From positions 64,001-128,000 of the IMG/VR virus record IMGVR_UViG_3300027736_000020: a stretch of 64,000 nt of DNA. The stretch is one strand, 5' to 3'. The notes beneath the pieces are model-generated. The model did not search any database and had not been told where the DNA came from. It saw only the letters and a list, made by a program, of their open reading frames with translations. This DNA is from a virus. This document shows positions 15,500 to 51,128 of this stretch, one piece after another. The position numbers and the translations under genes were made by a program. The stretch's first letter is position 1; the number at the start of each line of letters is the position of its first letter.

Positions 15500-17449
15500 T
15501 TATACAATTTCTTCATTATTATTTGCCTTGAATTCATACTCATCAACGACACTATTGTCATATTGAATTTCTGCAACAACGGTGGTTTCTTCTTCTGGGC
15601 TTGAGGCTGTTTCGTCTGAAACAGTAGCGGGAGATGTCATGTACAAGTCAGCAAGCAAGGATTCTGCAGATGGAAGTGTAGTGACAAGACTTGTTCCGGC
15701 GATGGGAAGCCCTTCCCATGCCATACCCGGATCTGTTGTGATATCCTGAGACAATCCAGTCAAGGCATATGGAATTTTTGATCCTCTTGAAACCTTTACT
15801 GAAGTTTGAAAAGCTACTGATGGATGAAAAGTCCATGAATGGGAAACTGTCTCAACGTAATACATTTCATAGTCATCTTTTGTTGAACGCGCTTCGGCAT
15901 TTTTTCCTGCATCAGGCACAATGAATAATTCTTGACCAATGCGTATGTATGGATTTCCAATCATGGAAATCTCTCCTGCAAAGATGTTATGCTGCTGCGT
16001 AAACACATCATACATCCATTGATTTATATTATCAAGTATTCTTGTTATGGTATTTTTTTCGTCAATTTTTTCTGAATCTTTATAGAATCCTTGATTCCAA
16101 AATGGAACTGCAACAATCATTGGCTTGAATCCAAATCTTGACATCCCAAGAACATCATAGAGAGGATTAAACGCATCATTTCCATTGTTTAATGAACAAT
16201 TCAACAAACCGTAATTATCAGGGCCACTGGCATTTGTGAATTGAGGAGAACTACGGCAATCGAATTTTTTGCTTTCAGTTGGAAATTGACTTCCCGAAGA
16301 TGGATTTTCTTCAACAGCGTAATCCCTCCATTTTGTAAAGAAAAAAGTTCTTGTGTCATTGTCATGACGAACCAGTATTTTTGAGAGTATTTCATTCCTT
16401 CCAATGAATGCTCTGTTTCCTGCTTCAACAAATTTTGTCTCATTAAAAAATTTTGCATTGCTAGAATCTAAAGGGATGCTATTTGATGCTTCCACGTTGA
16501 CATTGTTTTCTGAAAGAGAGTCCGCAATGAATCTTCCTTTTGGTGGATAAATACCCCATTTGTTTCTGAATGGTGCCCATCGTAAATGAAAAAATGTTTT
16601 TCCCCTGTATTTTTCCGCAACGGTTGGATCATTCTTGTCGTAGTCAACGACAAGAAACTCAAACATGGGAGCGGGTATGAATGCGGATAACCATGTCCAG
16701 AGTGATCCTTGTGCTTGCAGAATGGTATATTGAGAATTTATTATGTATTCTTCTTGTCCGTCACTCATGGGAATGTTTATTTCGTATTGAATATCTCCAG
16801 CGGAAATTAATTGATTGATTGCATCAAATCCAAGAAATTTATCTGTCAAAACTTCTTTGAACATTTTACTCATAAACTCTGTATACCCAACAAGCGCTTT
16901 GACTGTCCCCTTTGTGTTAGACATTGACACGGGTGTCACAGTGGCATTTTCTGTTGATCGTATGATTGATTGAACACCAACATTTATGAACATTCTTTGT
17001 CTTGCCCTTGAAATCTCATTGATAAATTCAACGGGAGGAACAATGTTCTTTTCAGTAAATATTTTTCCAAAATCTCTTCCAGAGATTGTCACGGATCGCA
17101 CTGGAGATCCTCTTTGAATTGTTTCCGTAACTCTTACGGCATCAACAAGACCTCGCATGATTACGGGAGGATCTTTGATATCATCCCTGATTACGCCTAC
17201 TCGGATTTCACAAAGGTCATTGATATTGATGTCTCCAAGATTCACTACCGTGCCATTGAGAATCGAAGGACGCAGTTCAATCTCCCATTGCCCTGCAGGA
17301 TCAGCAACGGATTTTGTCGTTTTGCCTCGAAGAACAAATTCGGAAACATCATATTTGCCAATCGTGATGCGTTGAGATATTGTTCGAACCTTTTTGGAAG
17401 AATCAAATGAAGAGACTTCTTCTGTGGGACTCTTTCGAAAAGAAATCAT
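15500..17449 (-). CDS. Baseplate hub protein (gp27/Tal-like)
   Basis: 649 aa directly after the tape measure. Motifs TTKSVADPAGQWEIEL, INDLCEIRVG, IMRGLVDAVRV, VTISGRDFGKIF, GNPYIRIGQEL, YYVETVSHSW...TSVKVSRG. Confidence 0.75.
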   Translation of the reverse strand: MISFRKSPTEEVSSFDSSKKVRTISQRITIGKYDVSEFVLRGKTTKSVADPAGQWEIELRPSILNGTVVNLGDININDLCEIRVGVIRDDIKDPPVIMRGLVDAVRVTETIQRGSPVRSVTISGRDFGKIFTEKNIVPPVEFINEISRARQRMFINVGVQSIIRSTENATVTPVSMSNTKGTVKALVGYTEFMSKMFKEVLTDKFLGFDAINQLISAGDIQYEINIPMSDGQEEYIINSQYTILQAQGSLWTWLSAFIPAPMFEFLVVDYDKNDPTVAEKYRGKTFFHLRWAPFRNKWGIYPPKGRFIADSLSENNVNVEASNSIPLDSSNAKFFNETKFVEAGNRAFIGRNEILSKILVRHDNDTRTFFFTKWRDYAVEENPSSGSQFPTESKKFDCRSSPQFTNASGPDNYGLLNCSLNNGNDAFNPLYDVLGMSRFGFKPMIVAVPFWNQGFYKDSEKIDEKNTITRILDNINQWMYDVFTQQHNIFAGEISMIGNPYIRIGQELFIVPDAGKNAEARSTKDDYEMYYVETVSHSWTFHPSVAFQTSVKVSRGSKIPYALTGLSQDITTDPGMAWEGLPIAGTSLVTTLPSAESLLADLYMTSPATVSDETASSPEEETTVVAEIQYDNSVVDEYEFKANNNEEIV

Positions 17450-20400
17450 GTGGCTCTCACAATCTGCTTTGATGGATTCAATATTGCATAGTGACTGATT
17501 GCGGCCATGAGATCAACCTCAGTGCTTCCAAGAGAATCACCAGAGGAATTGACAAACTCTATGGTCATCTTGTGAGAGATGGATTGCTGTGACTGTCCTC
17601 TGTCATTGTTGAGACTATTCAAGAAATCATTGGGAAGTATGCGTCCGTTTCCACCCGGCACATAGACTTCCGGACCTTTCTCTCCAACAATGACAGGAGA
17701 GCGGCCAAGGACTTCTCCTCCAGCCGCTTTTTGAGCTAAATCTGAAATGACGTACAGATCATCTTTTGTCACAGAAGTGCCAGTGAAGTCTCTTGGCTTG
17801 CCACCTTCAAGCGTATATGCTTCTCGTACTCTGTCAAGCCAATCAAGTGTTGATTCTGGATTCTCATCGCTGAATCCCGGTGTACCCGACTTTGCGTATG
17901 ATCCATGCCAAAGAAGCAGCGTCTTGTCAATGGCATCGAACGACCGTTGTTTTCCGGAAATCATGCCTTGATTGTAGACAGTTGATCTGATAAGTTGTTC
18001 GTTTCCGTTTTCATCATAGGTGACTTTGTCAAACATGTTGATTTTTTCTGCAATCATTTTGCCTGCAATATCGGCACTGAAAACTGGATTATGGAATGGA
18101 TTCCGATCTTCCTTGGATTTGGAAGGCGCAAGAATTTGAAATAATCCAGTAGCTGATGAGACTGGATTTTCTGCATTGACATCAAAATGACTTTCTTCTT
18201 TCATGAGAGCAAACAGCAAGCGAGGGTCAACAGTGCCGGGGCCATATTTCCCTGAAGCGGCTGATGCTTGCATTGCGCGTTCCTTGAAGAACTCTATGCC
18301 TTCCGGATGACGATTGACAAAATCCACCTCATTGCTCTGCAATGGAACTTTGCTCATGCTATCCTTGAGATCTTTTGCGCTCACTACATAGGAATCGTAT
18401 TGAGGAATAAACGGATGTTCCTGATCAAGCGTGGAAGTCATGCCCCAAGAATTATCCTTTGAGACAAGTGCCTCGCCTGTTTGCATGGATGCCCGCATGC
18501 CTCGATACACAGGTCCACCAAAAGCACGTGCTTCTATGGGCTGAGCAATCATTGCTGTCCTTGCCTGAGGGATCGCGCCTGTATCGAATGCTCTTGCTCC
18601 TCCTGTTATCGCTGCATTTGCAATATCAGTAATCGCTTTTGTAGGTGCGACAATATTTCCTATGACTGCAGATCCAGCATCTGTTATTCCTTTTCCTAAA
18701 ATAATTGGACCTGTAATTGCAGTATTGACTGCAGCTCCTGCAAGCGAAGCAATAGGTTTGTCAATTGGCTGACCGAGCGAGATTGCTGTATATAATTTTG
18801 CAATTGCAGAAGAAAGACTATCTGCTCCAGTTTGAAAAGTGCTTGTAATGCTTGTTATGGCGGATCCAAGCATTTCATTTGCTCTTGTCAATTCTCCGCC
18901 TTCAACCATTGGAGACGTAAGCTGGTTTTTCCCTACCCTATCGGAAAAAATCTCTTGATCAGCCCCCGTTCGTTGATTGCCAGATGGATCAATTACTCTG
19001 CTTCGAATAAATTCATGAATTTTTCCGGCTTGCGCTTGTCGAATCGTATCTTCGTCTTGTCCCGCTTTCACTCCTGCGGAGCGAACATCTCCGAGTTGTG
19101 TGATTAATTCATCCTGAACTTTTTGATTCTTGAATATTCCTTGATTGTTTACCCATCCTGCCAATTCTTCGTCAAACGCTTTGCCTTCATTTGAAGAACT
19201 CAATATGGGAATAAGGGATTTCTGAAGCTGCATTCCCTTTTCTCTTTGTTCTTGCGTATTGGTATCGTTACTTTCAAAAACGCGGGTAAATTGATTCGGA
19301 TTATTATTGAGCGTTCTTTGCCTCGCTCTCTGCGCTTCAGGACTGTTGGTAGCCGCCCTTGCCTTGAGTATCTGCTCTACTCCTGCCGCTCCTGTCTCCA
19401 CTCCCATCTGTTGGGCAACAATACCGTAAACCATGTCATTTTCAAGACTGTCATCAATGATTCCCTTATCATCCTTGCCTGTAAATGATTTCACCATGGT
19501 TGCAATCATTTCATTTCGAAGGTTTGGATCTCCTCCTCGTAATGCACGATTGATTGACATGGGAGAAGTTGGTGCAGAATACGTTTTTTGTTGATCAATA
19601 AGTTTGGATTGTCGAGCTTCCAATTCTTCTTTTGCCGCTTGATCTTCTGCGCTGTTACTAAATTTAGTACCTTGCAATTGTTTTTCAACAGATTCCAATT
19701 CGCTATTTGTACGCTGAAGTAATCCTTGACGTGCTGAATCATATCCAGCAACCATCATCCCCGGAAGTTGTGTTGACCCTATGGCTCCACGAGACACAAG
19801 CGAAGCGTCAAATTTCTGGATTGCTTGTGTGCCAAAACCAATCATTGAGGCATCTCGTTGATTATTAAGCTGACCCATTCCCTGTGAAGCTTGGAATATT
19901 GACGTTTGTGTATCGATTGCATTTCCAATGGAAATATTGCGTCCACCTGATGCCACTTGACCAAGCGCACTGCTTGCTGCATTTTGCAGTGCTTGATCGC
20001 GAAGGGCACCAAATTGACCTTGGCCAATCGCTGCACCAAAATTCCTGTTGAAGCCTATCTCAGTGGCTCCATATCCCTGCCCTCTGCCAAATGTTCCAAC
20101 CAAACCTGAACCACGAAGAGCGTCAACAACTTGACCGTATTGGTTCAAGTTCATTCCAGTCATTCGCGCAGAAGCAATGGTGTCTCCTGCGGAAACTTGA
20201 GAACGAACAACTCTTGTTGATGCACTTATCGAATCAGTAAATCCTTGCAATTCGCGCATGGAAGAAGTCATGAATCGCGTATGTTCAGCAACACTGGTTC
20301 CCAAACCAGTGGATACTTGCTGCACCTTGGTCCTGAAATCAGTCAAGGACATGCCTATATCACGAATTTGCCTGCTGAATTGTCCAAGTTCGTAGTCATT

Positions 20401-20580
20401 ACCCTTTGAGTTAATGACTCCTTCACGAACTTGTCTTTCAAGCCCTTCTGGGGTAAGACCTGCAGTTGTTGCTTGCCATGATCCAAAAACAGAAGCACTG
20501 GAGAGCCCAGCTCCCAGCACTCCCTTCATGACCCCTGTACCCAAGCTTCCTAGATACGGTAAAAGACTCGGTCCGCCCAT
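17446..20580 (-). CDS. Tape measure protein with lytic transglycosylase (SLT) domain
   Basis: 1044 aa, A/G/Q-rich helical sequence after the chaperones. SLT motifs LLFALMKEESHFDVNAENPVSSATGLFQI at about 17820-18290; typical TMP C-terminal motif AAGGEV...VIVGEKGPEVYVP...GRILPN. Confidence 0.85.
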   Translation of the reverse strand: MGGPSLLPYLGSLGTGVMKGVLGAGLSSASVFGSWQATTAGLTPEGLERQVREGVINSKGNDYELGQFSRQIRDIGMSLTDFRTKVQQVSTGLGTSVAEHTRFMTSSMRELQGFTDSISASTRVVRSQVSAGDTIASARMTGMNLNQYGQVVDALRGSGLVGTFGRGQGYGATEIGFNRNFGAAIGQGQFGALRDQALQNAASSALGQVASGGRNISIGNAIDTQTSIFQASQGMGQLNNQRDASMIGFGTQAIQKFDASLVSRGAIGSTQLPGMMVAGYDSARQGLLQRTNSELESVEKQLQGTKFSNSAEDQAAKEELEARQSKLIDQQKTYSAPTSPMSINRALRGGDPNLRNEMIATMVKSFTGKDDKGIIDDSLENDMVYGIVAQQMGVETGAAGVEQILKARAATNSPEAQRARQRTLNNNPNQFTRVFESNDTNTQEQREKGMQLQKSLIPILSSSNEGKAFDEELAGWVNNQGIFKNQKVQDELITQLGDVRSAGVKAGQDEDTIRQAQAGKIHEFIRSRVIDPSGNQRTGADQEIFSDRVGKNQLTSPMVEGGELTRANEMLGSAITSITSTFQTGADSLSSAIAKLYTAISLGQPIDKPIASLAGAAVNTAITGPIILGKGITDAGSAVIGNIVAPTKAITDIANAAITGGARAFDTGAIPQARTAMIAQPIEARAFGGPVYRGMRASMQTGEALVSKDNSWGMTSTLDQEHPFIPQYDSYVVSAKDLKDSMSKVPLQSNEVDFVNRHPEGIEFFKERAMQASAASGKYGPGTVDPRLLFALMKEESHFDVNAENPVSSATGLFQILAPSKSKEDRNPFHNPVFSADIAGKMIAEKINMFDKVTYDENGNEQLIRSTVYNQGMISGKQRSFDAIDKTLLLWHGSYAKSGTPGFSDENPESTLDWLDRVREAYTLEGGKPRDFTGTSVTKDDLYVISDLAQKAAGGEVLGRSPVIVGEKGPEVYVPGGNGRILPNDFLNSLNNDRGQSQQSISHKMTIEFVNSSGDSLGSTEVDLMAAISHYAILNPSKQIVRAT

Positions 20581-20586
20581 GTTTTT

Positions 20587-21234
20587 CTAGCCTTCGTCGG
20601 TTTTTTCTTCTTCTTCCTTGACCCACTTCCAGAAGTCTTCATCATCAAGACCGAATTCGCTTTCCTCGTTCTTTACCATGCCTCCTTGTGATTTTCGTAT
20701 TGGTGTCTTGAGATGTGGAGGGATGTTTGGATTTATACTTTCTTCTGGAACAGAAAGTTCCTCTGAATCTTCTTCTTCAAATTCTTCTTGATTTCTTCTC
20801 TTTCCACTCTTCAGATCCGAATTGCTTACGGTGTTTGAATCAGTATACTGAAATCCATTCGGAGCAGGAAGAGCGCCTCCAAATTGTTTCAATAATATGA
20901 ACGATGGCATATTGAATTTTATATCTTTGTTTTTAAAATCACGTAATCCATATTGAATTTCATGATAATATTGTCTTCGGTAAAAATCCCTCATTGCCTC
21001 CTCTTCAGAAACTTGGGTAAACCGAGGATCATTTATTGAAAAATTGTATTGAATTCTATACCACTCAAGGATGTCCGAAGATAGAACATCAAGAAGTGCT
21101 TGTTTCTTGATGAATTCCTCACTTGCTGGGTCTGGAAACTCGAAAAGATCCCCTCCATGATTCCCACTCACGATAATAATGAGAAAGATCATCAAATTCG
21201 TAAATGTTTTCCAAGAACTTGTCAATATTTCCAT
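20587..21234 (-). CDS. Tail assembly chaperone, GT-type extension (probably translated from about 21141 via +1 frameshift)
   Basis: Lies between the chaperone and the TMP. WYRIQYNFSINDPRFTQVSEEE resembles the second chaperone of SPO1/K-like phages. The ATG at 21234 has no RBS and its first 31 codons lie inside the upstream gene. Confidence 0.7.
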   Translation of the reverse strand: MEILTSSWKTFTNLMIFLIIIVSGNHGGDLFEFPDPASEEFIKKQALLDVLSSDILEWYRIQYNFSINDPRFTQVSEEEAMRDFYRRQYYHEIQYGLRDFKNKDIKFNMPSFILLKQFGGALPAPNGFQYTDSNTVSNSDLKSGKRRNQEEFEEEDSEELSVPEESINPNIPPHLKTPIRKSQGGMVKNEESEFGLDDEDFWKWVKEEEEKTDEG

Positions 21235-21550
21235 TACAATACGCAGGAAGATATCCCGGAGCTTGTGTAACCATCTGAAGCATGATAGACATCCATGTCA
21301 TTTCATAAGTGCGTTGATCAACGGTGGATCCTTGCAACGCCAAAGCAACCGCTTTTCCTGCGGTTCTTTGAAGATTGAGATGTCCCCTGACCACACCAAT
21401 TGTTCCACATGGGCCGTCAATCTCGTGACACTTTGAAGGATCGTATGACACAGAGTCTTTTGTATACGCAGGCTTCGGAGGTTCTGATGCCTTTGCAATG
21501 ACAGCCGTAATGCTTTCCTTTTCAACGATGGATGTTGTTTCTTCGCTCAA
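21119..21550 (-). CDS. Tail assembly chaperone (gpG-like)
   Basis: Position between tube and TMP. Likely TTG start at 21550 behind AAGGAG, giving 143 aa (the track start is 21574). Confidence 0.75.
   Translation of the reverse strand: MSEETTSIVEKESITAVIAKASEPPKPAYTKDSVSYDPSKCHEIDGPCGTIGVVRGHLNLQRTAGKAVALALQGSTVDQRTYEMTWMSIMLQMVTQAPGYLPAYCNGNIDKFLENIYEFDDLSHYYREWESWRGSFRVSRPSK
21139..21154 (-). other. Putative programmed +1 ribosomal frameshift site AGG GGA TCT TTT CGA G
   Basis: Sits in the overlap of the two chaperone ORFs, and the downstream ORF is in the +1 frame. SD-like AGGGG 3 nt before TTT, TTT->TTC re-pairing possible, CGA in the A site. Confidence 0.65.
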
Positions 21551-21578
21551 TGTATTTCTCCTTGTGAAATGCATGCTC

Positions 21579-21587
21579 AGTATAACA
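21579..21587 (-). promoter_or_regulatory. Putative extended -10 promoter TGTTATACT
   Basis: TGn-TATACT immediately downstream of the tube terminator and about 29 nt upstream of the chaperone start. Confidence 0.4.
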
Positions 21588-21620
21588 TAAAAACCACCCG
21601 TAAATCCGAGTGGTTTTTAT
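21587..21620 (-). terminator. Intrinsic terminator after tail tube gene (possibly bidirectional)
   Basis: ATAAAAACCACTCG-GATTTA-CGGGTGGTTTTTAT inverted repeat (one G-U pair) with T tracts on both strands. Confidence 0.8.
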
Positions 21621-21643: not shown

Positions 21644-22408
21644 CTATCCTCTGGAATACAAAGAGCTTTCCGCAGAATCCTTGTCTCTTGCATAAAATGT
21701 CACATTGTGCATGAGCACACGATTCGCATCAATGTTGAGATCTCCACCAGCAAAGAAACAATCCTTGTACTTGACAATGGTTCTTGGCCATCTGTTGACA
21801 GCCGGTGTGGAACCCGCTGCATCGACGTGAGAGACTGTTCCTCCTGCAGCGTTCTTAGTGGCTTCGTTACCAGTGTACAGCTGGGCATCCTTGACCTCTA
21901 TATCAAAAACCTTGGAATGGATCACTCTCCAGACTTGAGAAAAGTCTTTGGTTGCGTCCGGACCATTGATTACGTTTCTTGCGCTATTATCTGATGTGGG
22001 GAGCAAATCAAGATTGTCCGCCGCTGTGTCGGTACTAGATCCATATGGCTGAGCCTGCTTATTGTACATTGCGGCACCCGGATCCATTTCCATGTATCCA
22101 TCACCCAATGCATCCCTGCCTCCCCCTGACTTCAGCAGGCCAAAGGATCCAGCTCCCGTAGGCTCAAGTCCCAGCTTTGAAAGACTGATGTTGCGCAACA
22201 CAAGAACAGAAATGGTAATTTCGTGTCGTGCATGCATGGGAACATATTCAATGGTCTGGAGTTGACCAATCACGTTGACGGGTTCAAGTCCATAATCGTC
22301 ACGGAAACGTGCGGATTGTGCAAAGGCAATGGGAAAACCATCCATGTAGATGACGACCTTTCCTCCTGTCCGTACGCCTGTATTCCAAAGCTTCGCTGTT
22401 GTTGTCAT
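21644..22408 (-). CDS. Tail tube protein
   Basis: Follows the sheath. RTGGKVVIYMDGFPIAFAQSARFRDDYGLEPVNVIGQLQTIEYVP...KYKDCFF...NRVLMHNVTF matches the pattern of SPO1/K-like tube proteins, with two insertions. Confidence 0.85.
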   Translation of the reverse strand: MTTTAKLWNTGVRTGGKVVIYMDGFPIAFAQSARFRDDYGLEPVNVIGQLQTIEYVPMHARHEITISVLVLRNISLSKLGLEPTGAGSFGLLKSGGGRDALGDGYMEMDPGAAMYNKQAQPYGSSTDTAADNLDLLPTSDNSARNVINGPDATKDFSQVWRVIHSKVFDIEVKDAQLYTGNEATKNAAGGTVSHVDAAGSTPAVNRWPRTIVKYKDCFFAGGDLNIDANRVLMHNVTFYARDKDSAESSLYSRG

Positions 22409-22427: not shown

Positions 22428-25400
22428 TTACAAGATATGTGCGGTGATAAGCAGGTAATTTGCGGGAATTGCCGGACTTATGGAGAAGTCCACATAGATT
22501 GCATCACCAACGGTGCGCACATCAAGATCTTTGTACGCCGGATTGAATGCATTTCCCACAATCAGTCCTGCGCTATCTGCATAGATAAGAGTCGTATTGA
22601 CCCTTCTTGTAATCTCCTGAATGAGCGCTCCATCCAATCTCGACCCAACAAGATCTCGTACGGAATTCCTGACTCGTTTCATGACAATATCTGCACAACG
22701 CATCGTGCTGATTTCGCGTCTGACATAACGTGTATCACCGGTCCATGTCGTCAATGACTGGGCAACGACAAATCCGCGAGAAGCCTCATATTTTATTGCA
22801 AGAACTCCATTGGCCGCAAGATCGTCAATATCGGACGGTTTGGCAATTGTTTCCAAAGCCAACAGGTTGACAGTCTTGTTTGTAAGCGGAATTGATGGAT
22901 CCCTCTGCGCATAGAGAAGTCCGGCAATATATGGGGCAAGATAAACAGGAGACCATGTAATAAGGTTTCCATCTTCGTCATAATCCTTGATTCCCGGCCA
23001 GACAACAACGGCTCGTTTGTCATTGAATGAAGAGGCAAGCGTCTTGACATCTGTAACGCTCTGCCCTGAAGGACCACCAAAGACCGCAAAGCGTTCCTTC
23101 TTTCCAGTTGGAAGCGCCATGTTCTTGCAATGCTCAAGCACTGCAGACTGAATGACCGAGTTAGCGGTCATTGGACAGATAACTTCGACTGTTTCTGCGC
23201 TTTCCAGTTGCGTCAATGCATAGTCCCAGTGATAGGCAGTAACGGCACTCTGTACCGCACCAGAAAATCCATATGATCCGTTGGCGATGGATGATGCAGT
23301 GCCTGTTTTCACAACAGAGAAATGCGGAGAGTACACATCACCGAGGAGTGTCTGATAAATGCGATAGATGTTTCCCCGTAGAATAGTATTCGCAGTAGAG
23401 GAAGCCACAGCAATGGCAGAAGAACTTGGAACTGTTGTTTCAGCAAGAATGTCAAGATTTGTCGAAGAAAATCCAGCGTCTGTATTGCCAGATGCAAGAG
23501 ACAATTTCCAGCCAGTTCCGTTTGCAATATAGCCTTGATTTACTTTTTGAATGATTGAAGAAAGCTGAGGATATTTTGCCCACGTCAACTGGTCTGTTGT
23601 ATTATCAAGTCTGAAGTTTGACCCGGAAATGTCTGTGGGAACACTTGTGTAAGTAACCGTTCCTGTTCCCTTTCCTCCGGCAGCTGATGCGGTAAAACTA
23701 GTGCCTACTGCGTTAGGTGTTGTTCCGGAAGAACCCAACAGTCTGAAATCTGTTGCAAATGCGGTAGTGAATGTTACCTTGTCTGTAACCGCAGCAATGG
23801 GAGCAACAGGCGCAGTCGGAACTCCATATCCTGTTTGTCCAGCAACAGTGACAGTGATCGTGTACGCTGTACCGTTATCTGACACCGATGCAATGACAGG
23901 ATTTAGACCGAGGGAAGAAACAGGAGTTGCCGTTCCTGCCGTAGCAACTGCTGCGACAGTACTGGTATTTGCAATAGTAAACGATGTTCCTGAAATGCTT
24001 GTATTGACTACATGCGTACCGTTATACTCAGTAGGACTAAGACCAGCTAACTTTACCAACGTTCCCGGAGGAAACTGATATCCTGCACCATGAGTAACAG
24101 TCCAAATCGTTCCGTTTGTCGTAATTGCCCCTGTAGCAACAGTTGCAGGAGTGGTTGCTGCTACAGTTATGACAGAAGTCGGATTGATTATTCCATTGGA
24201 AACCAATGCGCCAGTAAGAGCATACGTCCATCCATAGGCTATGGAATACTGGCAGGATGCAATGGTGCCCGTTGAGTCTGTAAGAAGAGTCTGTGCATCT
24301 GTGACGCTGACAATTTTCGCAACAGTTGAAAAAGCTACCATTGTTGTTGAGACAACGGTCTGGCTTGTTGCAGCACCGTTTACTTGCACGGTGTAGGTGC
24401 CAACACCAGTTGTGCCTGTTCCCAATGCGCTGATTTTTGTTCCGGGAAGGACTCCAGTTCCGCCAATCGCCACATTGACGCCAAGAGTAGCTGTTGCAGC
24501 GGTGACGGTCAATGTTGTTCCAGAAATTGATCCAGTAAATACACCCCCATCTCCAAAGGTAATTGTTCCTTCGGTCATGATTCCAGAAAATCCAGTTCCT
24601 GTTACCGTATATCCAGCTCGCGATACAGTATTCACTGCTGTCGCAGGAATCACGCTTGTTCCTGCGGTGACTGTTCCAACGGTCATCGCTGAGTTGGCAT
24701 TTAATGCATTGCTGGTTAATGTTGCTGTTTTGACAACGTTAGCGGGAGCGGTGTTTTGCGAGATTGTGTAGTATCTTCCCTGTACAAGATTCCCTGCGGT
24801 TACCGTAGATGTCTCTGAAGGATTTCCCGATGTTGCTGTCAGCTCAATTCCTGTTCCTGTTATTCTTACCTTGGGAATAATCGATGCAAGGTTTGCCGCT
24901 GCATTGACATTACTAGCGCCATCATTGTTGATATACTCAACCTTGAGCAAATCCAATCCGACATTATCCGTGACAAAAGTCGCACCTCCATCACGAGTCA
25001 ATGTGATTTTCTTGTATCCGGTTTTTCCATTGGAGGCATTTGCAAGTGACAATAGCCAAGAATTTCCGTAGTAGCCATATTCCTTCGCTGTCAAGGTAAA
25101 AGGGGAAAATGAAGTGGTTGCTTGCGAAGCAGTCGCAGCAATTGACGAACCTGCTGCAGTGGTTGTGGTAATAGGACTTCCGATTCGTACGGCAATGACT
25201 CTTGGAGCGCCAGCATTGAACGCCTTCCTGAGACCAAAAACCAAAGGATTGGTTACGGGATCTGGGTCTCCATAATAGGCAAGTGCGGTATTGTAATTGC
25301 TGAAAGCCAACGGCTTGCCGGGTTCTCCTCGCACAGCTTCACCCATGATGACCATCTCTGGTCCAGTGCTTGGCGCTGCTGCGAATGATGCATTATTGTC

Positions 25401-25460
25401 ATCAATGTAGGATGCTACTCCCGGAGCGATCAATGTTACTCCATTAAATGAAACTGCCAT
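22428..25460 (-). CDS. Tail sheath protein with large modular insertion
   Basis: N-terminal PGVASYID...IMGEAVRGEPGKP...AGAPRVIAVRIG; C-terminal EHCKNM...RFAVFGG...FNDKRAVVVWPG...GVLAIKY...SLTTWT...EISTMRCAD...VDFSISPAIPANYLLIT. These are contractile sheath motifs; 1010 aa. Confidence 0.9.
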   Translation of the reverse strand: MAVSFNGVTLIAPGVASYIDDNNASFAAAPSTGPEMVIMGEAVRGEPGKPLAFSNYNTALAYYGDPDPVTNPLVFGLRKAFNAGAPRVIAVRIGSPITTTTAAGSSIAATASQATTSFSPFTLTAKEYGYYGNSWLLSLANASNGKTGYKKITLTRDGGATFVTDNVGLDLLKVEYINNDGASNVNAAANLASIIPKVRITGTGIELTATSGNPSETSTVTAGNLVQGRYYTISQNTAPANVVKTATLTSNALNANSAMTVGTVTAGTSVIPATAVNTVSRAGYTVTGTGFSGIMTEGTITFGDGGVFTGSISGTTLTVTAATATLGVNVAIGGTGVLPGTKISALGTGTTGVGTYTVQVNGAATSQTVVSTTMVAFSTVAKIVSVTDAQTLLTDSTGTIASCQYSIAYGWTYALTGALVSNGIINPTSVITVAATTPATVATGAITTNGTIWTVTHGAGYQFPPGTLVKLAGLSPTEYNGTHVVNTSISGTSFTIANTSTVAAVATAGTATPVSSLGLNPVIASVSDNGTAYTITVTVAGQTGYGVPTAPVAPIAAVTDKVTFTTAFATDFRLLGSSGTTPNAVGTSFTASAAGGKGTGTVTYTSVPTDISGSNFRLDNTTDQLTWAKYPQLSSIIQKVNQGYIANGTGWKLSLASGNTDAGFSSTNLDILAETTVPSSSAIAVASSTANTILRGNIYRIYQTLLGDVYSPHFSVVKTGTASSIANGSYGFSGAVQSAVTAYHWDYALTQLESAETVEVICPMTANSVIQSAVLEHCKNMALPTGKKERFAVFGGPSGQSVTDVKTLASSFNDKRAVVVWPGIKDYDEDGNLITWSPVYLAPYIAGLLYAQRDPSIPLTNKTVNLLALETIAKPSDIDDLAANGVLAIKYEASRGFVVAQSLTTWTGDTRYVRREISTMRCADIVMKRVRNSVRDLVGSRLDGALIQEITRRVNTTLIYADSAGLIVGNAFNPAYKDLDVRTVGDAIYVDFSISPAIPANYLLITAHIL

Positions 25461-27520: not shown

Positions 27521-29266
27521 TTAGTTGAGCGCACCAACGTTCTTGAAGATGAACTGGCGCTCAGGCGACTTGAGAACAAGTGTATGATACAGAAGCAGCA
27601 AGTACTCAAACGTGGTGTTCGTCGGAGCGAGCGGCATCTTGAGCAGTGGCGACATCTGCGCGATACAGAGGTCAGCCGAATTGCGGCAGATCAGCGGCGC
27701 AATGTTCGTGCCACCACGGAAGTTGTTGTACAACTCCGGCGTGCCATTGCGATCCGTGAACGTACCAGCCGTTCCCGGAAGATGTCCGACATACTGCCAG
27801 CGATTGGCACCACTGCTGTCAGTAGCACCAAATCCCGGAGTCGCTTCTCCGGAAGCATTCAACTTGCAACGATAGATTCGGAAAGACTTCGCCTTATCAA
27901 CCGCAGGAACAGTAAGAATGACCGAATCTCCAGCAGCAACGCTCACCTCAGTTCGCGAAACTGTCGAAGTTACATTGGCAACACTATTCAGTGCAAGATC
28001 AGTAAGACCTGTAGCAGAAGCGATATTGGTGCCGGTAGTGCCAGATACTGCTACGCCATATATAACAGCCGTAGGTGCACTTTCACCTGCATCACTTACT
28101 GCCGAGATGCCATAGGCATAGTAGCCAACTTCCATGTTGGAAACAAAGCCAGATGAAGCATTATGCGCCGCAGTGATGACCAATTGACCACCAGACGCAG
28201 GAGCAGCAGGAACACCAGTTCCAGAATCACCAGTGGTAAGCGGGGCTCCACCTTCCACCGGCTCGGTGAAGATCGACCACTCGAAAGGAATGACTCCGAA
28301 CGATGTGGACTGTCCGACAATCGACAAACCGGCGAGAAGATTGGTTCGAGCCGAAGTCGAAAGATCAGAGCGATCAACACTGGTGCCCGGTCCAAACGGA
28401 ACGTTGGCAACGTTATTGATGCTTCCCAACTGTGTAGAGTAGCGCAGCTTGCCAAAATCCTCGATGTTCTGCGGGCTCATGAACAATGTGACATCCTGAA
28501 ACGAAAGAAGCTTGCCTTCCGTCACGAGACGGGAAGCAGTATTCGCCAGAACATCCATCGTGAGCGGCTTGCCCTTCATGTCAATGATGTTCTTCTTGCG
28601 TTTGGTTGTAAGCTGCTTGAGAAGACCATCATAGTTCGAATCCGAACCCGAAGCATCCAGAATCGCTTCGTCACCATACATGACGGCTCTTTCGATTCTT
28701 TGCATGAAATCCATGGTGCGGCCAAGCTGATCCTCAGCAACCGGATCGACGGACATTCCGCCAAGGATGTTGGTCAGCACTGCCGGATGAGTCACACCAC
28801 CGCGAGTTCCGAGGAACTTCACGTATGCCCCATTACGGCTCCACTGACCAGCTCCACCCGTAGGAGCGCCACCTTCGGCAAATCCGAAATGTCCTCTGGT
28901 CGAACCATAGGAATCACGACGGTTCCACTGATAGAATGGCTGCTTCGACGGCTCCTTGTGAAGGAAGCGAAAAATCTTGAGATGCTCGGCAGTCGCAAGA
29001 ACGCTTGTCATCGTGTTGTCAAGGTTCTCAAGACGCAATGCACTGCCTTGTCCAGCTCCCTGACCACCCGAGTTTGGGTAGACAGGACCATACTGATTCG
29101 ATCCAGCCGTGGTGACAATACCCGTGTTGAGAGCCTTGCGAATCTCGTCAACGATGTCATCTCCTCCGAACTGCTGACGGCTCCAGTCCCGGACAGTCAT
29201 ATCGAAGCTTTTGTTCAGGGGCTCCGGCCTGCGGTACCCCGAAGGGAATTCTGTTAAAAGCGACAT
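27521..29266 (-). CDS. Major capsid protein (HK97 fold, Herelleviridae-like)
   Basis: GSALRLENLDNTMTSV...FAEGG...VKFLGTRGGVT...DPVAEDQ...IERAVMYGD...YDGLLKQL...IIDMKGKPL, plus the FN3-like insertion (YAYGISAVSDAGESAP...FRIYR) typical of SPO1/K/A511-type capsids. Follows protease and scaffold. Confidence 0.92.
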   Translation of the reverse strand: MSLLTEFPSGYRRPEPLNKSFDMTVRDWSRQQFGGDDIVDEIRKALNTGIVTTAGSNQYGPVYPNSGGQGAGQGSALRLENLDNTMTSVLATAEHLKIFRFLHKEPSKQPFYQWNRRDSYGSTRGHFGFAEGGAPTGGAGQWSRNGAYVKFLGTRGGVTHPAVLTNILGGMSVDPVAEDQLGRTMDFMQRIERAVMYGDEAILDASGSDSNYDGLLKQLTTKRKKNIIDMKGKPLTMDVLANTASRLVTEGKLLSFQDVTLFMSPQNIEDFGKLRYSTQLGSINNVANVPFGPGTSVDRSDLSTSARTNLLAGLSIVGQSTSFGVIPFEWSIFTEPVEGGAPLTTGDSGTGVPAAPASGGQLVITAAHNASSGFVSNMEVGYYAYGISAVSDAGESAPTAVIYGVAVSGTTGTNIASATGLTDLALNSVANVTSTVSRTEVSVAAGDSVILTVPAVDKAKSFRIYRCKLNASGEATPGFGATDSSGANRWQYVGHLPGTAGTFTDRNGTPELYNNFRGGTNIAPLICRNSADLCIAQMSPLLKMPLAPTNTTFEYLLLLYHTLVLKSPERQFIFKNVGALN

Positions 29267-43470: not shown

Positions 43471-46400
43471 TCACGAATTTGCGGAACTTATTTGAGTGCA
43501 AGCGTTAAAAAATGGTTCACTTTGGTCGCCATTGATATGTCCAAGTATTTTTTTTGTCCATTCCGTAAAAGACAAAGTTACTCTTGCTGGATCTTTAAAT
43601 ACATCGTCGGGTATTTGGTCAGTATTTTTGCCATAATTTGAAAACCCTCCCCTAAATATGTATTTTACTTTTCCTGTTTGAGTATCCATGTGTTCTTGAA
43701 GCTCTTGACTTATTTGTTGAGGCATTGAAATGCCCATGTTTTCTAAATATTTTTTGTAAACATCTCCTCCTGTTGATCCATCATATTCTGAAGTAAGAAA
43801 AGTTCTCCAAAACATTGCTTTCATCATGCGATTTTGTTCGTTTTCGTCATCTGTTTCTTCCCGAATTCTTGCAACCACATCTGCTCTTGTGATGGGTGAA
43901 TCCGGACTATCAGTTTCCAGTTTTTTTTCTTTTATTCCATCAAAAAGTTTTCTTCTTATTCCTTCAAAGTCAGAATTATTTGCCCAATTCTCATACATTT
44001 CTTTTTCTTTGCTGTACACGCCATAGAGAGCAAGTACTTTGGATGATTCATCGTCAAAAGTTCCTATTCCCGCAGGACGAGTGCCAGTATTGGGAGTAAT
44101 TCCAAAATTATCAAAAAGTGAATTTACCTTGGCATTTCTTTCATCTTGCATATCAAGAATAAAATTCCATGTGTTTCTGCCATTGAAATTCAGTGGATTG
44201 AATTGAATTTGACTTTGTCCTGCTGCTTCAGATAGTTTATCAATCCATTGATATTTTTGTTTTTTATTCAAGTCACTAAATTTTTTTCCTTCAACAGTAA
44301 TTATCTTGAAATCGGTTAATTGCAGTCTTTGTGACGATCCATTTGTGTAACTGGAAATTACTTTTTCTATTACACTACGCCTTGGCGTATAACCAATAGC
44401 GTCTCGCGTCAATGTCGAGTCTCTTTCGATTTTTTCTTTCGAAACATCCTCTTTCAATGATTTTCCCTGTATTGATGTTTGATTATTTGGACTATACGAA
44501 GCTTCACAATGTTTGTCAACAATAGCTTTGATTGATTTTATTACAGTATTATACGAACCTCGTTCAGTAACCGGAATATTAGTCGCGAAGTCATCAACTT
44601 CAGGAAAAGGAGCACTACCATTTGGATTTGTTTTTAGATAAACATATCTCATGTATGCTTTTGCAAAGAAAATTGCTTTTTTCTGTTTCAACAATAGTGA
44701 TGGATCTGAAGATGCTAGATCTGAATCCTGTATCCCTGCAACGGCGTCTACATATTTTTTCCCGTAAAGTTGGTCAGTAGCCAATGTCATCAAACCGTCT
44801 ATTTGTTCACTAAGTGGAACGACAGGTGAGGTTCTGTTATTTCCTATATTGTTTGCAAACCCAACATTTGCTGCCATTCCCATTGCCAGATACATATGTT
44901 CCATATCTTTACTGCGATTGCCTGTGGTGGTTGTTCCAATTACAACAAATGTAGAAGGCCTACGTTGTGTTGCCGTCTCAAAATCTTTTCCTTGAAAATT
45001 TACACTGGAAGAAAAACCCAATTCTTTGCTTTTGTCTATTGTTCCACTTTTCCCATTCAAAAGTTTTGTTTTCCATCCATCATCGGTATCAGTATCTTTT
45101 GTTTTAACTGTTGTGTCTTGAGAAGCTCGGGCTTGCGGCAAGAATAAAATGTCATTGGCATCCTTGCTACTTGAAAAAGTTACTGCTGGGACAACCATTG
45201 AAAGATCCTTGCCTGTTGTTGTAAGTGATCTGGTCGGTATGGGAGCAAACATCAATGGACTTTGAGGAACAAAGTAAAGCATTACATTGGATTTGGCAAG
45301 ATTTTTAAACCATTGTTCTGCAAGTCGTGATATTTGTTGCGGTTGGCCAAGAAGACCTGTTATTTCTCTTGCTCTTTGCACTCTTCCGGAATTTATTCCC
45401 GAAAAATCTTCAGAACCATATCCATTATTTCTTCCAAATAAAGTTTGCATGGGAGTAATAAAATTATTTGCTTTTAGTCCCCAAACATGGTTTTTGTTTT
45501 CGTCGAATATTTTCGACAAAAAATTTGATCCGGGAAATACAACCTTTGGTTTTCCCTTGTCGTCACTTATTAATGATTTTACTTGTCTTACGCTGGAATC
45601 TACGGCGTCATCTGTCCAAGGACAATTTATATGTACTTCATCTCCTTTTGAAACAACATTGCTTGTAGATGCAGAATAATCTTCAAATGCATCTTGCGGA
45701 ATATTTTTCTGTGAATCATCATAAGTAAATTCAGGATATTGATCATGAGCATATCCGTCAATGTGACGAGGGTCTAGAGGGCTTCCATTTGGTTCGATAA
45801 CAGGCCCTGTTGATTCCATCAATCCCCTTGCAGACCCATTTATTTTTACTTTGCTAGCAAGGATTTTTTTTCCTCCGGCAATATTTGCACTTGCCTGTTC
45901 TTTGGCAATTGATTGAAATCTTTGTCTTCTTGCCGTATATTCGGCAAGAATAATCATTGATTGCACTTTTCCTGTACTGTCAACATAATTATTGAATTTT
46001 TTTATACCATTTCCGCTTGACACATTTGAAGGATAATAATACGTGTGTTTTGAAATTACAAATTTTTTGCCACCTAATCCTTCTCGAAACATCATTATTT
46101 GCTGGAGCATTACTGGCACTGTTGTTTGACCACCTGTTCTGTTCGTAGTTGTGTATGCTCTTGTTTGTCTTTTTACTTCAATACGAATAGGACTTGATGG
46201 TGCGCCAAGAACATACGTTGAAGATTTTATTCTTGGATCAAATCTCATTCTTTTTAACGATGCAATTCCTATCTGTTTTCTGTCAGATACATTTTCTTCT
46301 TCAGACAAACTTATTCCGTTGTTAAAATCATGAATTTGCTTGTTGCCGCCATATTCCGTAGAATAATTTAAATCATCAACATTCCATTTCCAGTAATTTT

Positions 46401-49400
46401 TTGGTCCGTTTTGCAGCCAAATCCCATTATTGCTTCTTTTTGGAATCACGCCTTTTGCTAGTGCCAAAACTCCTGAATTTCCCGGAGAAGTATCATTTGT
46501 ATCGGCATATATTTTTTTGCCAATTGCCATGGCTCGAACAATTGCTGACATTTTTCTTGAAGAAAAATGCGTTTGAAAAAGAACCAACACATTTGAAAGA
46601 CTTTGCTGAAGCTGCATTGATGGACTGAAACCATTTCTTTTTGTTTCGTTTGAACTTGATGCGTATTGCCAGTCAATTTTAGGTTTCTGAAAGTTTCCGG
46701 GAATTGTTTGCGTTTGTGTTACGTAATCAAACGCTCTTCGAAGAACTTCTGGAGGATATGGTGAAATAACCAAGCTTGATCCATCTCGTTCTATGCCTCG
46801 TTGATAATAATTGTGTTCCCATGATTGACGGACATCTTCTTTCCTGTACGGCGCAATAAATTTTTCTAGAATTGTTCCTCCTTGTCTTGCCTCCTCAAGT
46901 TTTGGTTTTAAATCCATCATCCTTGAGACAAGATCATTGAAAGAAGCGGAAAAATCTCTTTTTCCATCTTCACCTACAGAATATTTTATGCCATATGCTC
47001 CGTTTTCCAGAATAATTCTTTTATTACCGGAAATCAAGATATCTGCAAGCTCTCTTTGTTCATCAGAATAACTGCTTGAGTTTTTATGCCAGCTTTCAGG
47101 ATCGATTGTTGCAAGAATTCTTCCTTGATGAGTGGTGCTTCCTGCTGTTCTCATTGTGCCGGTATCGTAAGTTTTTCCAATTCTTGTTTCCGGTGTCTCA
47201 AACGCAATTGTTCCCAACGACATTCCTGACTGAAGCCTGTTTCTTTTAAGAAGATAATCAGCTGACGGAGATTCTCCGGGAAGCCTTTCTGATATGATCA
47301 ATCCTCCATTTGCAAGTATTTCATTCATGAGAGTAGTTCTCGCAACATCTTTTGTTTGCGAAGCATTAAACAAAACAGGAACATTTTCTGCGTCAGAATT
47401 TAACCCTTCTCCAAGAATTGCAACGGTTTTTCCGTATCCTGAAGGAGTTTTTCCGTCTGGAGACATTGCAAATTTGTGACATATTGAATCTGTTCCGTGA
47501 GCTAATCCACTTATCATCACCCAATTGTTTTGAGCAAATTTTGCTGCAAGTGATGCGGCAAAAACAAATCCATTCCCAATTAATTGCGTACCTTTTTTGA
47601 GATTTGCACCACTCCAACTGCCCGGTTTGTCAGTCCCCATATTTCGCGTACCAACTCCTCCAACAGTTAATGCCTGCCCACTTGCAAGCGAATAAAGAAG
47701 ATTTTGGCCACTTGCTTCCTGTTCCGCATTCAAACCGTTATGACGGATAAATAATAGTTGCGGGGCATCTTCGCCAATGTTTCTCAAAAGCGCGGGATAT
47801 TTTTCCATTGATAATGGAGTGACTATTTCAGTGTTGGTTCTTGCAGCCCAAGCTTTGCAACTTTCTGCAAGATTTTTCAAAATTCCATCTCTTGCCATCG
47901 GTTGCAATGAATAATCTCGAATCATGGACTCAATACCATCATCTGTGATAGAAGAATTTACCTGTTTGATAAATTTTCTTACATCATTTCCCCCATCTTT
48001 AAAAAGTTTTGTTATTTTAGTGTTTAATGCGGTGTCAATCAATCTTTTTTCAAAATCATCCAATGATTCACCGTTAACAAAATTCATTTCTTTTGTTCCG
48101 TTGGTGTAATCCTCCGGGTCTCTATTGAAATCAAATGATTTTTGAGAATCTGGAATAAACAAAACAGGATTGTCAAATTCATTTCTGTTTTCATATATCA
48201 TTTCACTGGGATCAAATCCTGAATATCCTCCATCATACACTTTTGAGGTATTTTCAGGAATTATTGAACACAATAAGAACTGTTGTCCAAATTCTTTTGC
48301 TTTCTGAATTGCATCTAATTCTTTTTTTTCTATTGCCGGAACAATGTGTTCTTCAAATAACTGTTCTATTGTGTCTGCGTTGACATCTTTTACAGTTTGA
48401 TCTGCAGAAATTTCTCTTCTATTGTCTGTAGAGTTTCTAGATATTCTTTCTTTTTCAGCCGTATTATCATCAAGTATCTTGGAGCCTTCACTCCATATTT
48501 GTGTCCATCGAGGATTCGTCCAATGAAGTCCCAGTTTATCCAATGTCATTGCAAGGTTTGTCGCTGCAATTCTTCTTTCCATCTGGCTTTGCGTCAAGGG
48601 TTTTTCCTTGGAGAGAAATGTTCGGGTTCCTTGTTGAGAAGTATTGTCTCTTGAATTTCCGGACGTTACGGTGACCCTTTGCCCTGCGGGTCGAGGAAAA
48701 TCTTCTCCAAGGAATCCTCTTTCGTCGGCAAGCATGCTTTTTAGAACTTCGACTTGATTTTTTCGAAAAGAAGGAATGGGATCTCCAAGAACTGAAGCTA
48801 CACTTTTGGTCGAGGTTATTGCTCCTTTGTTTCCTTTCATGAAATAAACAAGCGGAGAACCTCCCTGTATTCCCTCGTTGTCTTTAACAGGACCAAGTCC
48901 GGGAATCAATCCAGTTATTGCATCAGGCAAATCGATTGAATTTGCAGGCACTATTTGAAAACCGAGCATGTCTGCTGTAATAGCCATTTGATGGGCTTTT
49001 TCAACATGGTTTGATAGTGCTTCTTCGGGATTTTTTTCGCCAAAATATGAAACTCCATTATTTGAAACATGAAGTTTGTGCTCTAATACAATTTTTAAAA
49101 AATCATCAAGTGTGATTGACTTTTCTTCTATTTTTGCACTTTCTCTCGAATCAGCATTTTCATTATATGTTAAGCCATTCAATTCCTGATGTTTTTTGGC
49201 CAATGTATCCATTAAAGCAAACAGTTTTGTTCCTTCTTTGTTTTCATTCAACCAATGGTTATCTTTTATAATATCAGGTCGTTCTATTGTATCTGTTGTT
49301 TGCAGCGGATCTTGTTCTGAATTATATGTATTTCTATTTATGTTATCTTGATCATTAATAAATGATTCTGGAGTCAGGCTTCTTATGTCATCATCTGGAT

Positions 49401-50139: not shown

Positions 50140-50143
50140 TTTT

Positions 50144-50407
50144 TCATTCCTGATCTTCTAACATTTTCTCTTTTTTTATGGAATTTTTTGCATGATCAAT
50201 CTCTTCTTGTGAAGCATTTATTTTAAACAGATATTTTAAATAATTTTCAGCTTCTTCTAGATAAATATTTTTGTTATTTTGATAAAATAATTTTTTATGA
50301 AGTTTTTTCTTCTTGTTGTCCCTGTTTTTTCCTTCAAAATCTTCTTCAGTTTTCTTGGTGTTTTTCTTGCTAGAAATATTTTTTTGAAAAGACATTTTAT
50401 TCTCCAT
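50144..50407 (-). CDS. Hypothetical Lys-rich protein
   Basis: 87 aa; fills the gap between co-oriented genes. Confidence 0.55.
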   Translation of the reverse strand: MENKMSFQKNISSKKNTKKTEEDFEGKNRDNKKKKLHKKLFYQNNKNIYLEEAENYLKYLFKINASQEEIDHAKNSIKKEKMLEDQE

Positions 50408-50429
50408 TTAATTTATGAGCAAACATGCA

Positions 50430-51110
50430 TTAGTCATCGTCTTCAGGATAATTTTGGTCGTCTATTCCGTCTTCATCTTGAATTGACCCAACTGCTGGCG
50501 GTCTGTAATGATCCGCAGAAAGAGTATACCCTTCTGGAATTTTTGGTGTTACATCAAAACCAGTGTATGGGTTCAGTTCATTTGGATGAAAATGCTCCAG
50601 AGGATGTATTCCAAGAGGGTTCGATCTCTTTATCTTACCCCGTCTATCTGAGTGCCTACCTGCTGGAGTTCCTTCTATTCCGGGATATTCAGTGTGAACT
50701 CCAAAAAATCCCAATATTGAGTGAGGTTTTGTCTTTTCAGCTTCTGGTGTTATTCTAAGTCCTCTTGTTTGTATCTCTTGCAATTTCTTGTATTCCTCTG
50801 GACTTGGAACGACATTTTGCGAATTGCCAGATAACCGTGCACTTAATCTGGAAAATATTGAAAATTCTCCGGGTGACAATCCCAACAATTCTGGATTCAT
50901 TTCTCCTTTTTTCGCTTCCGTCGATGATGGATAATAAGGATTTATTGGACGGATTGTTCCAGTATCTATTGTACCAGTATCAATTACATTTTCTTCTACT
51001 GAATCGTTAAGAGCGTCGGAAGGTAGTGTTCGGCCTTGGCCTAAATCTTCATCATCATCGTAGTCGTCGTCTATATCTTCAGTAACTGATGATTTTTTAA
51101 AAAAGAGCAT
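50430..51110 (-). CDS. Hypothetical protein, possible internal virion protein
   Basis: 226 aa. Begins MLFFKKS, nearly the same as the MLIFKKS start of the 2566-aa neighbour. Confidence 0.7.
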   Translation of the reverse strand: MLFFKKSSVTEDIDDDYDDDEDLGQGRTLPSDALNDSVEENVIDTGTIDTGTIRPINPYYPSSTEAKKGEMNPELLGLSPGEFSIFSRLSARLSGNSQNVVPSPEEYKKLQEIQTRGLRITPEAEKTKPHSILGFFGVHTEYPGIEGTPAGRHSDRRGKIKRSNPLGIHPLEHFHPNELNPYTGFDVTPKIPEGYTLSADHYRPPAVGSIQDEDGIDDQNYPEDDD

Positions 51111-51128
51111 TTTTTAATCCTAGTCTTT

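Follow-up and report, generated by a model that had tools for sequence, protein, structure and literature searches.

Comparative evidence for a probable programmed +1 frameshift at a conserved UUU_CGN site within the gene for a tail assembly chaperone of an uncultured contractile-tailed phage

A stretch of 64,000 nucleotides (nt) of viral DNA, bases 64001-128000 of the 184-kb uncultured-phage record IMGVR_UViG_3300027736_000020 (CheckV completeness 97%) and called the window in the following, contains two overlapping open reading frames (ORFs), G and T, located between the genes for the tail tube and the tape measure protein. Comparison with related loci makes it very probable that G and T form the two frames of one gene, which encodes the tail assembly chaperone in a contractile-tailed phage and is expressed as a short protein, G, and a long protein, GT, the latter by a programmed +1 ribosomal frameshift at TCT TTT CGA. 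The +1 reading is strongly supported by the comparative evidence; that ribosomes actually shift here, how efficiently they do so and which partners G and GT bind we infer from it. The anatomy of G and T, their frames and their conservation at the protein and nucleotide level are observed directly and are described below.

Gene G (21119..21550, minus strand) encodes a protein of 143 amino acids (aa) and 16.1 kDa, the predicted short form of the chaperone. Its start is most likely the TTG at 21550-21548, which is located 6 nt past the Shine-Dalgarno (SD) sequence AAGGAGA (21557..21563, minus strand), and its stop is the TGA at 21121-21119. Relatives carry GGGAGA or AGGAG ahead of an ATG at the aligned position. 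The T segment (20587..21141, minus strand, 184 aa) is read in the +1 frame from its first codon, GAG (21141-21139), to the TAG stop at 20589-20587, and the overlap of G and T does not contain a −1 slippery heptamer of the type XXXYYYZ. The core of the putative shift site, TCT TTT CGA (21140..21148, minus strand), lies in the G frame context TCA TGG AGG GGA TCT TTT CGA GTT and consists of TCT at 21148-21146, TTT at 21145-21143 and CGA at 21142-21140, which would occupy the ribosomal E, P and A sites as UCU, UUU and CGA. The predicted GT protein combines codons 1-136 of G with the 184 codons of T (320 aa, 37.0 kDa); its junction reads ...WRGSF-EFPDPASEEFIKK, and the junction peptide has the form ...GSF-EFPDPASEEFIK (GSF-EFPDP...). 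The original prediction, which had been made from the letters of the window, had given the minus-strand sequence, the frames with T in +1 and product sizes of 143 aa and 136+184 = 320 aa, all of which are borne out by translation.

Altogether, 27 related loci were recovered from viral and metagenome contigs with the tube protein, with an alignment of the T part and with the T-part query again in metagenome contigs. An alignment limited to T was used in order that the shift site itself should have no influence on which loci were picked. The related loci comprise 23 distinct G sequences, and after removal of near-duplicates 18 representatives remained, with a mean synonymous-codon identity of 0.48. 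Each of the 28 close-family loci has T in +1 with respect to G, and TC-N-TTT-CG-N is present at the aligned position in 28/28 loci and in each of the 18 diverged representatives. All four bases occur among the representatives at the wobble positions of the site's Ser and Arg codons, and the Arg codon four codons upstream of the site varies between CGA, AGA and AGG. The phase of the variable positions in the alignment follows the wobble bases of the G frame upstream and those of the T frame from approximately 12 nt past TTT. At the protein level, the G homologues (n = 36, 62-93% identity) all end with ...W.WR(N/G)SFR and a short variable tail, and T is conserved among relatives starting just past the shift site. 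Since over 30 independent assemblies show this conserved arrangement, it cannot stem from a pseudogene or a sequencing error. One JGI protein, P0038 (180 aa, on a contig of 1038 nt), joins about 105 unrelated, fibre-like Gly/Thr-rich N-terminal residues to the C-terminal half of G; this short contig is probably chimeric or misassembled.

Stop codons in both frames delimit the region in which the shift would have to occur. Three relatives (L004, L015 and L029) have a stop in the T frame 13 codons ahead of TTT, and in another (L027) G stops directly past the CGT (TTT CGT TAA). The shift is thus confined to the segment from 13 codons before TTT through one codon after it, and between these bounding stops UUU_C is the sole place where a P-site tRNA can re-pair in the +1 frame. 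A programmed +1 shift at TTT_CGA in a G/GT pair, as originally proposed, fits these stops as well as the synteny, the constant +1 frame of T and the lack of a conserved start for T.

Analysis of the surroundings of the site for a conserved RNA structure revealed none (consensus −3.3 kcal/mol; the window alone has z = +0.36), and an Rfam search of the site region gave no match. A hairpin 27 nt downstream of the site is present in the window; it is not conserved in the relatives. Separately, a possible short stem was seen in columns 5-9/32-36 of alignment A4 (in the window approximately 21171-21167 with 21144-21140), in which CGNGAA about 25 nt upstream pairs with UUCGNG at the site. One pair of this stem shows some covariation (AU, GU, GC), which may merely reflect the R-E and F-R codons. 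A naturally fused single-ORF GT was not found among proteins of 252-2000 aa, which is weak evidence.

To more distant sequences the comparison was extended with a profile of G, which had seven matches among 1.8 billion representative proteins, including two remote homologues, P0039 and P0041. P0039 is encoded on a contig with 75% G+C (L033), where the site reads AAG TCC TTT CGC GCT and T is again in the +1 frame. The G+C content at third codon positions is 98% on this contig, and of 11 Phe codons the one at the site alone is TTT. In L033 the +1 product shows homology to T, located equally far from the site (hhalign 97.4%, E 1e-11). The gene for P0041 (contig ENA ERZ1760229) comes after genes for a sheath and a Phi812-type tube in the gene order of the window, and the next ORF is in +1 according to its coordinates. 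Further scans of genome contigs and viral contigs for distant loci found none.

Cultured phages were not matched by a DNA search or by a tblastn search with G; tblastn with T matched Aeromonas phage ST4. The +1 product of ST4 in turn matched seven more phages, namely Pseudomonas phages Dolphis, Jeremy and Touem01, Bordetella phage PHB04, Yersinia phage fHe-Yen8-01, Escherichia phage ECML-606-1 and Enterobacter phage phiT5282EW. Six of these cultured myovirus records (ST4, Dolphis, Touem01, PHB04, fHe-Yen8-01 and ECML-606-1; L034-L039) were examined; Jeremy and phiT5282EW were left out. All six encode, in this order, sheath, tube, G, T and a transglycosylase-bearing tape measure protein, with T in the +1 frame, and in all six an in-frame NNN TTT CGN lies inside the overlap. 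The sites are GAC TCC TTT CGC in ST4, CGG TCC TTT CGC in Dolphis, GGC TCC TTT CGA in PHB04, GAA CGA TTT CGA in fHe-Yen8-01, GAA ACA TTT CGC in ECML-606-1 and GGA TCT TTT CGC in Touem01. The codon before TTT is UCN in 18/18 representatives, in L033 and in four of the six cultured phages, the other two having CGA and ACA. The conservation of the motif in related phages, which had been named as a check of the original prediction, thus covers 28/28 close loci, L033 and all six cultured phages.

TTT is a minor Phe codon in several of these genomes: it makes up as little as 3-14% of the Phe codons in PHB04 (1/32), Dolphis (2/29) and ST4 (8/61), and the product of the TTT fractions across the six cultured loci is approximately 1e-5. 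This fits a selection at the nucleotide level that would keep TTT at the site in the GC-rich relatives. T of the close family and T of ST4 are homologous (hhalign 95%, E 4e-8), and the homology lies almost equally far from the site in both. The comparison of the ST4 G protein with the G profile was not significant (3%, E 0.014), yet it is collinear and places the SFR ending on SFR; since it is not significant, homology of G between the close family and the ST4 group is not claimed. In the GenBank records of all six cultured phages the annotated chaperone ORF or ORFs are separate 'hypothetical proteins', and Touem01 has no annotation for the G frame. No paper mentioning a frameshift was found in the literature on these cultured phages.

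The following mechanism is proposed. Most ribosomes would read G through to its TGA and produce the 143-aa protein. A minority would pause while peptidyl-tRNA-Phe sits on UUU (21145-21143) in the P site and the A site presents CGA, and the tRNA-Phe would then move forward by one base to UUC, with which it forms the better Watson-Crick match. GAG would be decoded next, followed by the remainder of T, resulting in the GT fusion. The conserved signal consists of the short (UCN_)UUU_CGN without a downstream RNA structure. By analogy to lambda gpG/gpGT, many copies of G and few of GT would coat the tape measure protein, with the T domain recruiting the tube protein. Such a low-efficiency site without a stimulator would suit a chaperone pair, for which lambda needs a ratio of approximately 30:1 (PMC5009743).

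Several observations weigh against this reading or limit it. Single sequences and alignments of G and T did not match any family in Pfam or PHROG at E <= 1, including the chaperone families T4_baseplate (PF12322) and Phage_TAC. The AlphaFold model of G, made with 24 sequences, is poor (predicted local distance difference test, pLDDT, 53), and an Atlas comparison of G gave weak leads only (PF17388 and PF08890, at 0.88-0.89). Because the model of G is poor, the designation 'tail assembly chaperone' rests on synteny, architecture and these weak Atlas leads. The remote homologue P0041 ends with ...SFE... and not with SFR. In addition, S-F-R is invariant as protein sequence of G, and the conservation of the site could therefore be partly conservation of the protein. 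In-frame TTT_CGN is not avoided in the ORFs of this genome (35 seen, 36.6 expected), which implies that the motif alone gives only low-level shifting or needs further context. The bare TTT_CGN is thus nothing special; the feature above chance is its invariance at the exact position in every relative examined. Finally, the invariance of CGN has no explanation from codon rarity. CGN codons are used at 3.9-8.3 per thousand in this phage and are not rare, and the tRNAs encoded by the phage include Arg(UCU) and none that reads CGN. The relatives have CGT, CGC and CGG at the A site besides the CGA of the window. CGC, a common codon in E. coli, is found there in the E. coli phage ECML-606-1. The rare-codon explanation is thus unsupported by the codon usage of the phage, and the 'slow CGA' of the original prediction finds no support, with CGA being used at 7.0 per thousand.

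Taken in its strong form, the prfB-like mechanism of the original prediction would mean that the 16S rRNA tail pairs with AGGGG 3 nt before the P-site codon, that a slow CGA replaces the stop codon and that no useful shifting takes place without the SD-like element. We regard this as improbable, although part of the evidence points to it. The SD-like sequence GGAGGGGATC (21147..21156, minus strand), which contains AGGGG, is located directly 5′ of the slip codon. Its duplex with the anti-SD has an energy of −14.8 kcal/mol and belongs to the top 0.3% of the coding 18-mers of the genome, calculated with a generic 16S 3′ tail, which may not be that of the host. No start codon in any frame follows GGAGGGGATC. 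The element arose via approximately 5-6 substitutions in an otherwise conserved stretch of 9 nt and has been kept in a clade of three, and the retained GGAGG is notable because internal GGAGG is depleted genome-wide (213 seen vs 274 expected). SD-like runs are also found 5-6 nt ahead of the same UUU in Touem01 (AAGGAGGGATCT, −16.7 kcal/mol), PHB04 (−12.7 kcal/mol) and Dolphis (−11.4 kcal/mol), which makes an origin by chance alone less likely, and FseA has a G-rich region upstream of its shift site (PMC4755241).

However, among the 18 representatives the element (AGG GGA TCT) is present in three, the window, L001/L013 and L014, and these form one clade (support 100/98); AGG GGA TCT is a derived state of this single clade. 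The other 15 representatives, with CGA/AGA AAC/AAT TCN, and likewise L033, ST4 and fHe-Yen8-01 lack SD-like pairing (only −4 to −8 kcal/mol), yet all of them keep the +1 architecture and UUU_CGN. The A site does not contain a stop codon, and its CGA is not rare, as described above. The spacing, which had been taken as an exact copy of that in prfB, agrees with it in part: the slip codon occupies positions 10-12 after AGGGG in both, and the weaker register AGGGGA-UCU-UUU matches the prfB spacing of 3 nt, with a terminal mismatch. In the best register, GGAGG.GAUC, the core is located 6 nt from UUU vs 3 nt in prfB. The prfB-like element does not stand as a conserved determinant of the shift. As judged from these comparisons, the SD-like element seems to be an optional and recurrent accessory and not the mechanism itself. 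An accessory, lineage-specific boost is plausible because SD-like runs recur independently in Touem01, PHB04 and Dolphis. That GGAGGGGATC raises the efficiency of the shift in this phage is a fair guess that falls just short of an even chance. In the mechanism proposed here it would be a lineage-specific addition that is not required.

A second explanation, that T arises as a protein of its own, through an internal start at a non-canonical codon or through ribosomes that re-initiate once G has terminated at its stop, appears very unlikely. Gene callers and GenBank do give a separate downstream ORF in the cultured relatives, some relatives have a GTG after the site, and a non-frameshift mechanism has been proposed for T4-like chaperones by Vladimirov et al. 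(2022), as cited in PMC12846349. However, this GTG is absent from the window, L014, L011, L028 and L004. In L004 there is no ATG, GTG or TTG in the T frame ahead of the invariant EWYR motif, the same holds for L033 ahead of the W(Y/F)R motif, and none of the candidate starts in the T frame, which were examined in all relatives, has an SD sequence. The starts annotated for the second ORF in the cultured phages exclude the conserved FWYRRQY...NDPRF region. Separate synthesis of T furthermore cannot account for the rare TTT that is kept exactly at the site in GC-rich genomes. In the window, EWYR and DPRF precede the first Met past the overlap, and an SD is lacking ahead of the ATGs at 21234 and 21192, confirming the earlier statement that the downstream ORF lacks a start supported by a ribosome-binding site. 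Independent initiation at 21234 or 21192 is therefore rejected; in those relatives with a +1-frame stop 13 codons before TTT, starts at these positions are also excluded.

A −2 ribosomal shift, which Xu et al. reportedly described for phage Mu in 2004, or slippage of the RNA polymerase on the T run deserves hardly any credence: −2 and +1 reach the same frame and the window has four consecutive Ts, but a step of 2 nt backwards would place tRNA-Phe on GUU, CUU or AUU, with which it cannot re-pair, the neighbouring tRNAs cannot re-pair either, most relatives have only a TTT flanked by G and C, which is far too short for polymerase slippage, and the move from UUU to UUC gives perfect re-pairing.

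Frameshifting in the tail chaperone genes of lambda, P2 and Mu is said to go back to work by Levin in 1993 and by Xu, Hendrix and Duda in 2004. The conserved frameshift of these systems (lambda gpG/gpGT, P2 E/E+E′, Mu gp41/42) is reviewed in PMC5009743. The +1 reading of G and T shares with them the overlapping ORF pair between the tube and the tape measure genes, the second ORF without a start of its own, and an abundant short and a rare long product that coincide at the N-terminus, here predicted from sequence. It differs in the direction of the shift, +1 versus −1 (−2 in Mu), in the absence of an XXXYYYZ heptamer and in that G and T lack detectable similarity to any catalogued chaperone family. 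A tail chaperone thought to use +1 is that of the haloarchaeal myovirus HSTV-2 (PMC5009743), which is likewise a myovirus chaperone pair with a long form that needs +1, but has an archaeal host.

The site itself resembles a motif known from eukaryotic viruses. Influenza PA-X (UCC_UUU_CGU), amalgaviruses and chronic bee paralysis virus share UUU_CGN, which is recognised there as a +1 motif (PMC5009743, PMC5052127). In common with PA-X and the amalgaviruses are the zero-frame UCN_UUU_CGN, the move of tRNA-Phe from UUU to UUC, the lack of a downstream stimulatory structure and the low efficiency expected; the differences are the bacterial ribosomes, the CGN codons, which are not rare in the phage, and the location in the structural module of a DNA phage. 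In bacteria, UUU_Y sites are prone to +1 shifting in E. coli argI, Yersinia YopN-TyeA and the ICEMlSymR7A activator FseA (PMC5009743, PMC4755241), and in all of these as well as here tRNA-Phe would slip +1 on UUU_C without a stop codon. FseA shifts +1 at UUUC with 4-13% efficiency and has an upstream G-rich region (PMC4755241); the window is similar in its G-rich upstream region and in a Trp codon four codons before UUU (TGG at −4). The proteins are unrelated, and the shift in FseA gates a regulator, whereas here it would determine in what proportion two assembly proteins are made. E. coli prfB (AGG GGG UAU CUU UGA C) has in common with the window the +1 slip in the P site, an SD-like element close upstream and, if AGGGG is aligned, the same distance to the slip codon. 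It differs from the window, where the A site holds a sense codon, an autoregulatory logic is lacking, the SD-like element is absent from most relatives and the best spacer is 6 nt instead of 3 nt.

All genes in the chaperone region of the window are on the minus strand, and profile searches gave the order major capsid, sheath, tube, G, T and tape measure, in which G and T occupy the standard place of the tail assembly chaperone pair. The major capsid protein is encoded at 27521-29266 (minus strand). The gene for the tail sheath protein (22428-25460, minus strand) was identified with phrog_279 (tail sheath, E 2.7e-36), with Pfam Phage_sheath_1 just below the cut-off. With 1010 aa this sheath protein is unusually long, and since the profile spans residues 646-1008 only, the approximately 640 N-terminal residues would be extra domains. 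Directly after it follows the gene for the tail tube protein (21644-22408, minus strand, 254 aa; phrog_985 virion structural protein, E 6e-17), presumed to be the partner of the T domain; Pfam Phi812_tail_tube was found at the homologous position in a distant relative. The window has one tube gene, and two tandem paralogous tube genes are present in L002 (5271-6678) and L003 (5263-6666). The tape measure protein (17446-20580, minus strand, 1044 aa), the presumed client of G and GT, contains a lytic transglycosylase domain (Pfam SLT, residues 783-872, E 1.7e-7) and has a weak match to the tape-measure family phrog_5062. Its ATG is located 7 nt past the T stop.

Between the tube gene and G lies a terminator-like hairpin (21587-21620, minus strand) with a stem of 14 bp, an A-run before and a U-run after it. 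Its minimum free energy is −23.7 kcal/mol compared to −10.3 kcal/mol for shuffled sequences (z = −5.2), and it was not listed by a consensus scan. This hairpin probably lowers transcription of the chaperone and tape measure genes relative to sheath and tube. Elsewhere in the window (43471-58829, minus strand) a pair of very large ORFs (2222 and 2566 aa) is found in a part of lower G+C content, 35-37% vs 42-51% for the structural module. Eight tRNA genes are clustered beyond the window at 136834-141234 of the genome (G000:C1), encoding Gly-UCC, Arg-UCU, Asn, Thr-UGU, Leu-UAA, Gln-UUG, Lys-UUU and Met. These tRNAs decode A/U-ending codons, which suggests that the G+C content of the host is above the 43.6% of the phage. 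Codon pairs in the ORFs of the whole genome show a strong bias after Phe, with TTT-AGR seen 8 times vs 28.7 expected, TTC-AGR 33 times vs 12.7 and TTT-ANN at about 0.6 of expectation.

Tail chaperones made by frameshifting belong to the textbook examples of recoding, yet nearly all characterised ones shift −1, and +1 sites are still poorly handled by annotation tools. According to PRFect (PMC10885494), a general +1 motif is not known. In the loci compared here, lineages whose G halves no longer align have the +1 junction marked by one short motif, the same as that of influenza PA-X, and the UUU_CGN pattern could serve as a simple annotation rule for these chaperone genes. Because phages of E. 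coli and Pseudomonas putida carry the site, the shift would be measurable with standard reporters and mass spectrometry. The finding also raises a mechanistic question, namely why CGN is needed after UUU though it is not a rare codon. As a tentative and rather doubtful generalisation, UUU_CGN might be a universal stimulator-free +1 site for bacterial and eukaryotic ribosomes alike, for a reason other than codon rarity, long fixed across a superfamily of myovirus chaperones that includes unannotated cases in cultured phages of E. coli, Yersinia, Pseudomonas, Bordetella and Aeromonas, to which an SD-like element was separately recruited in this clade, Touem01 and PHB04 to tune the ratio of G to GT. 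If this were true, the separate recruitments would represent a natural series of how a prfB-style stimulator evolves.

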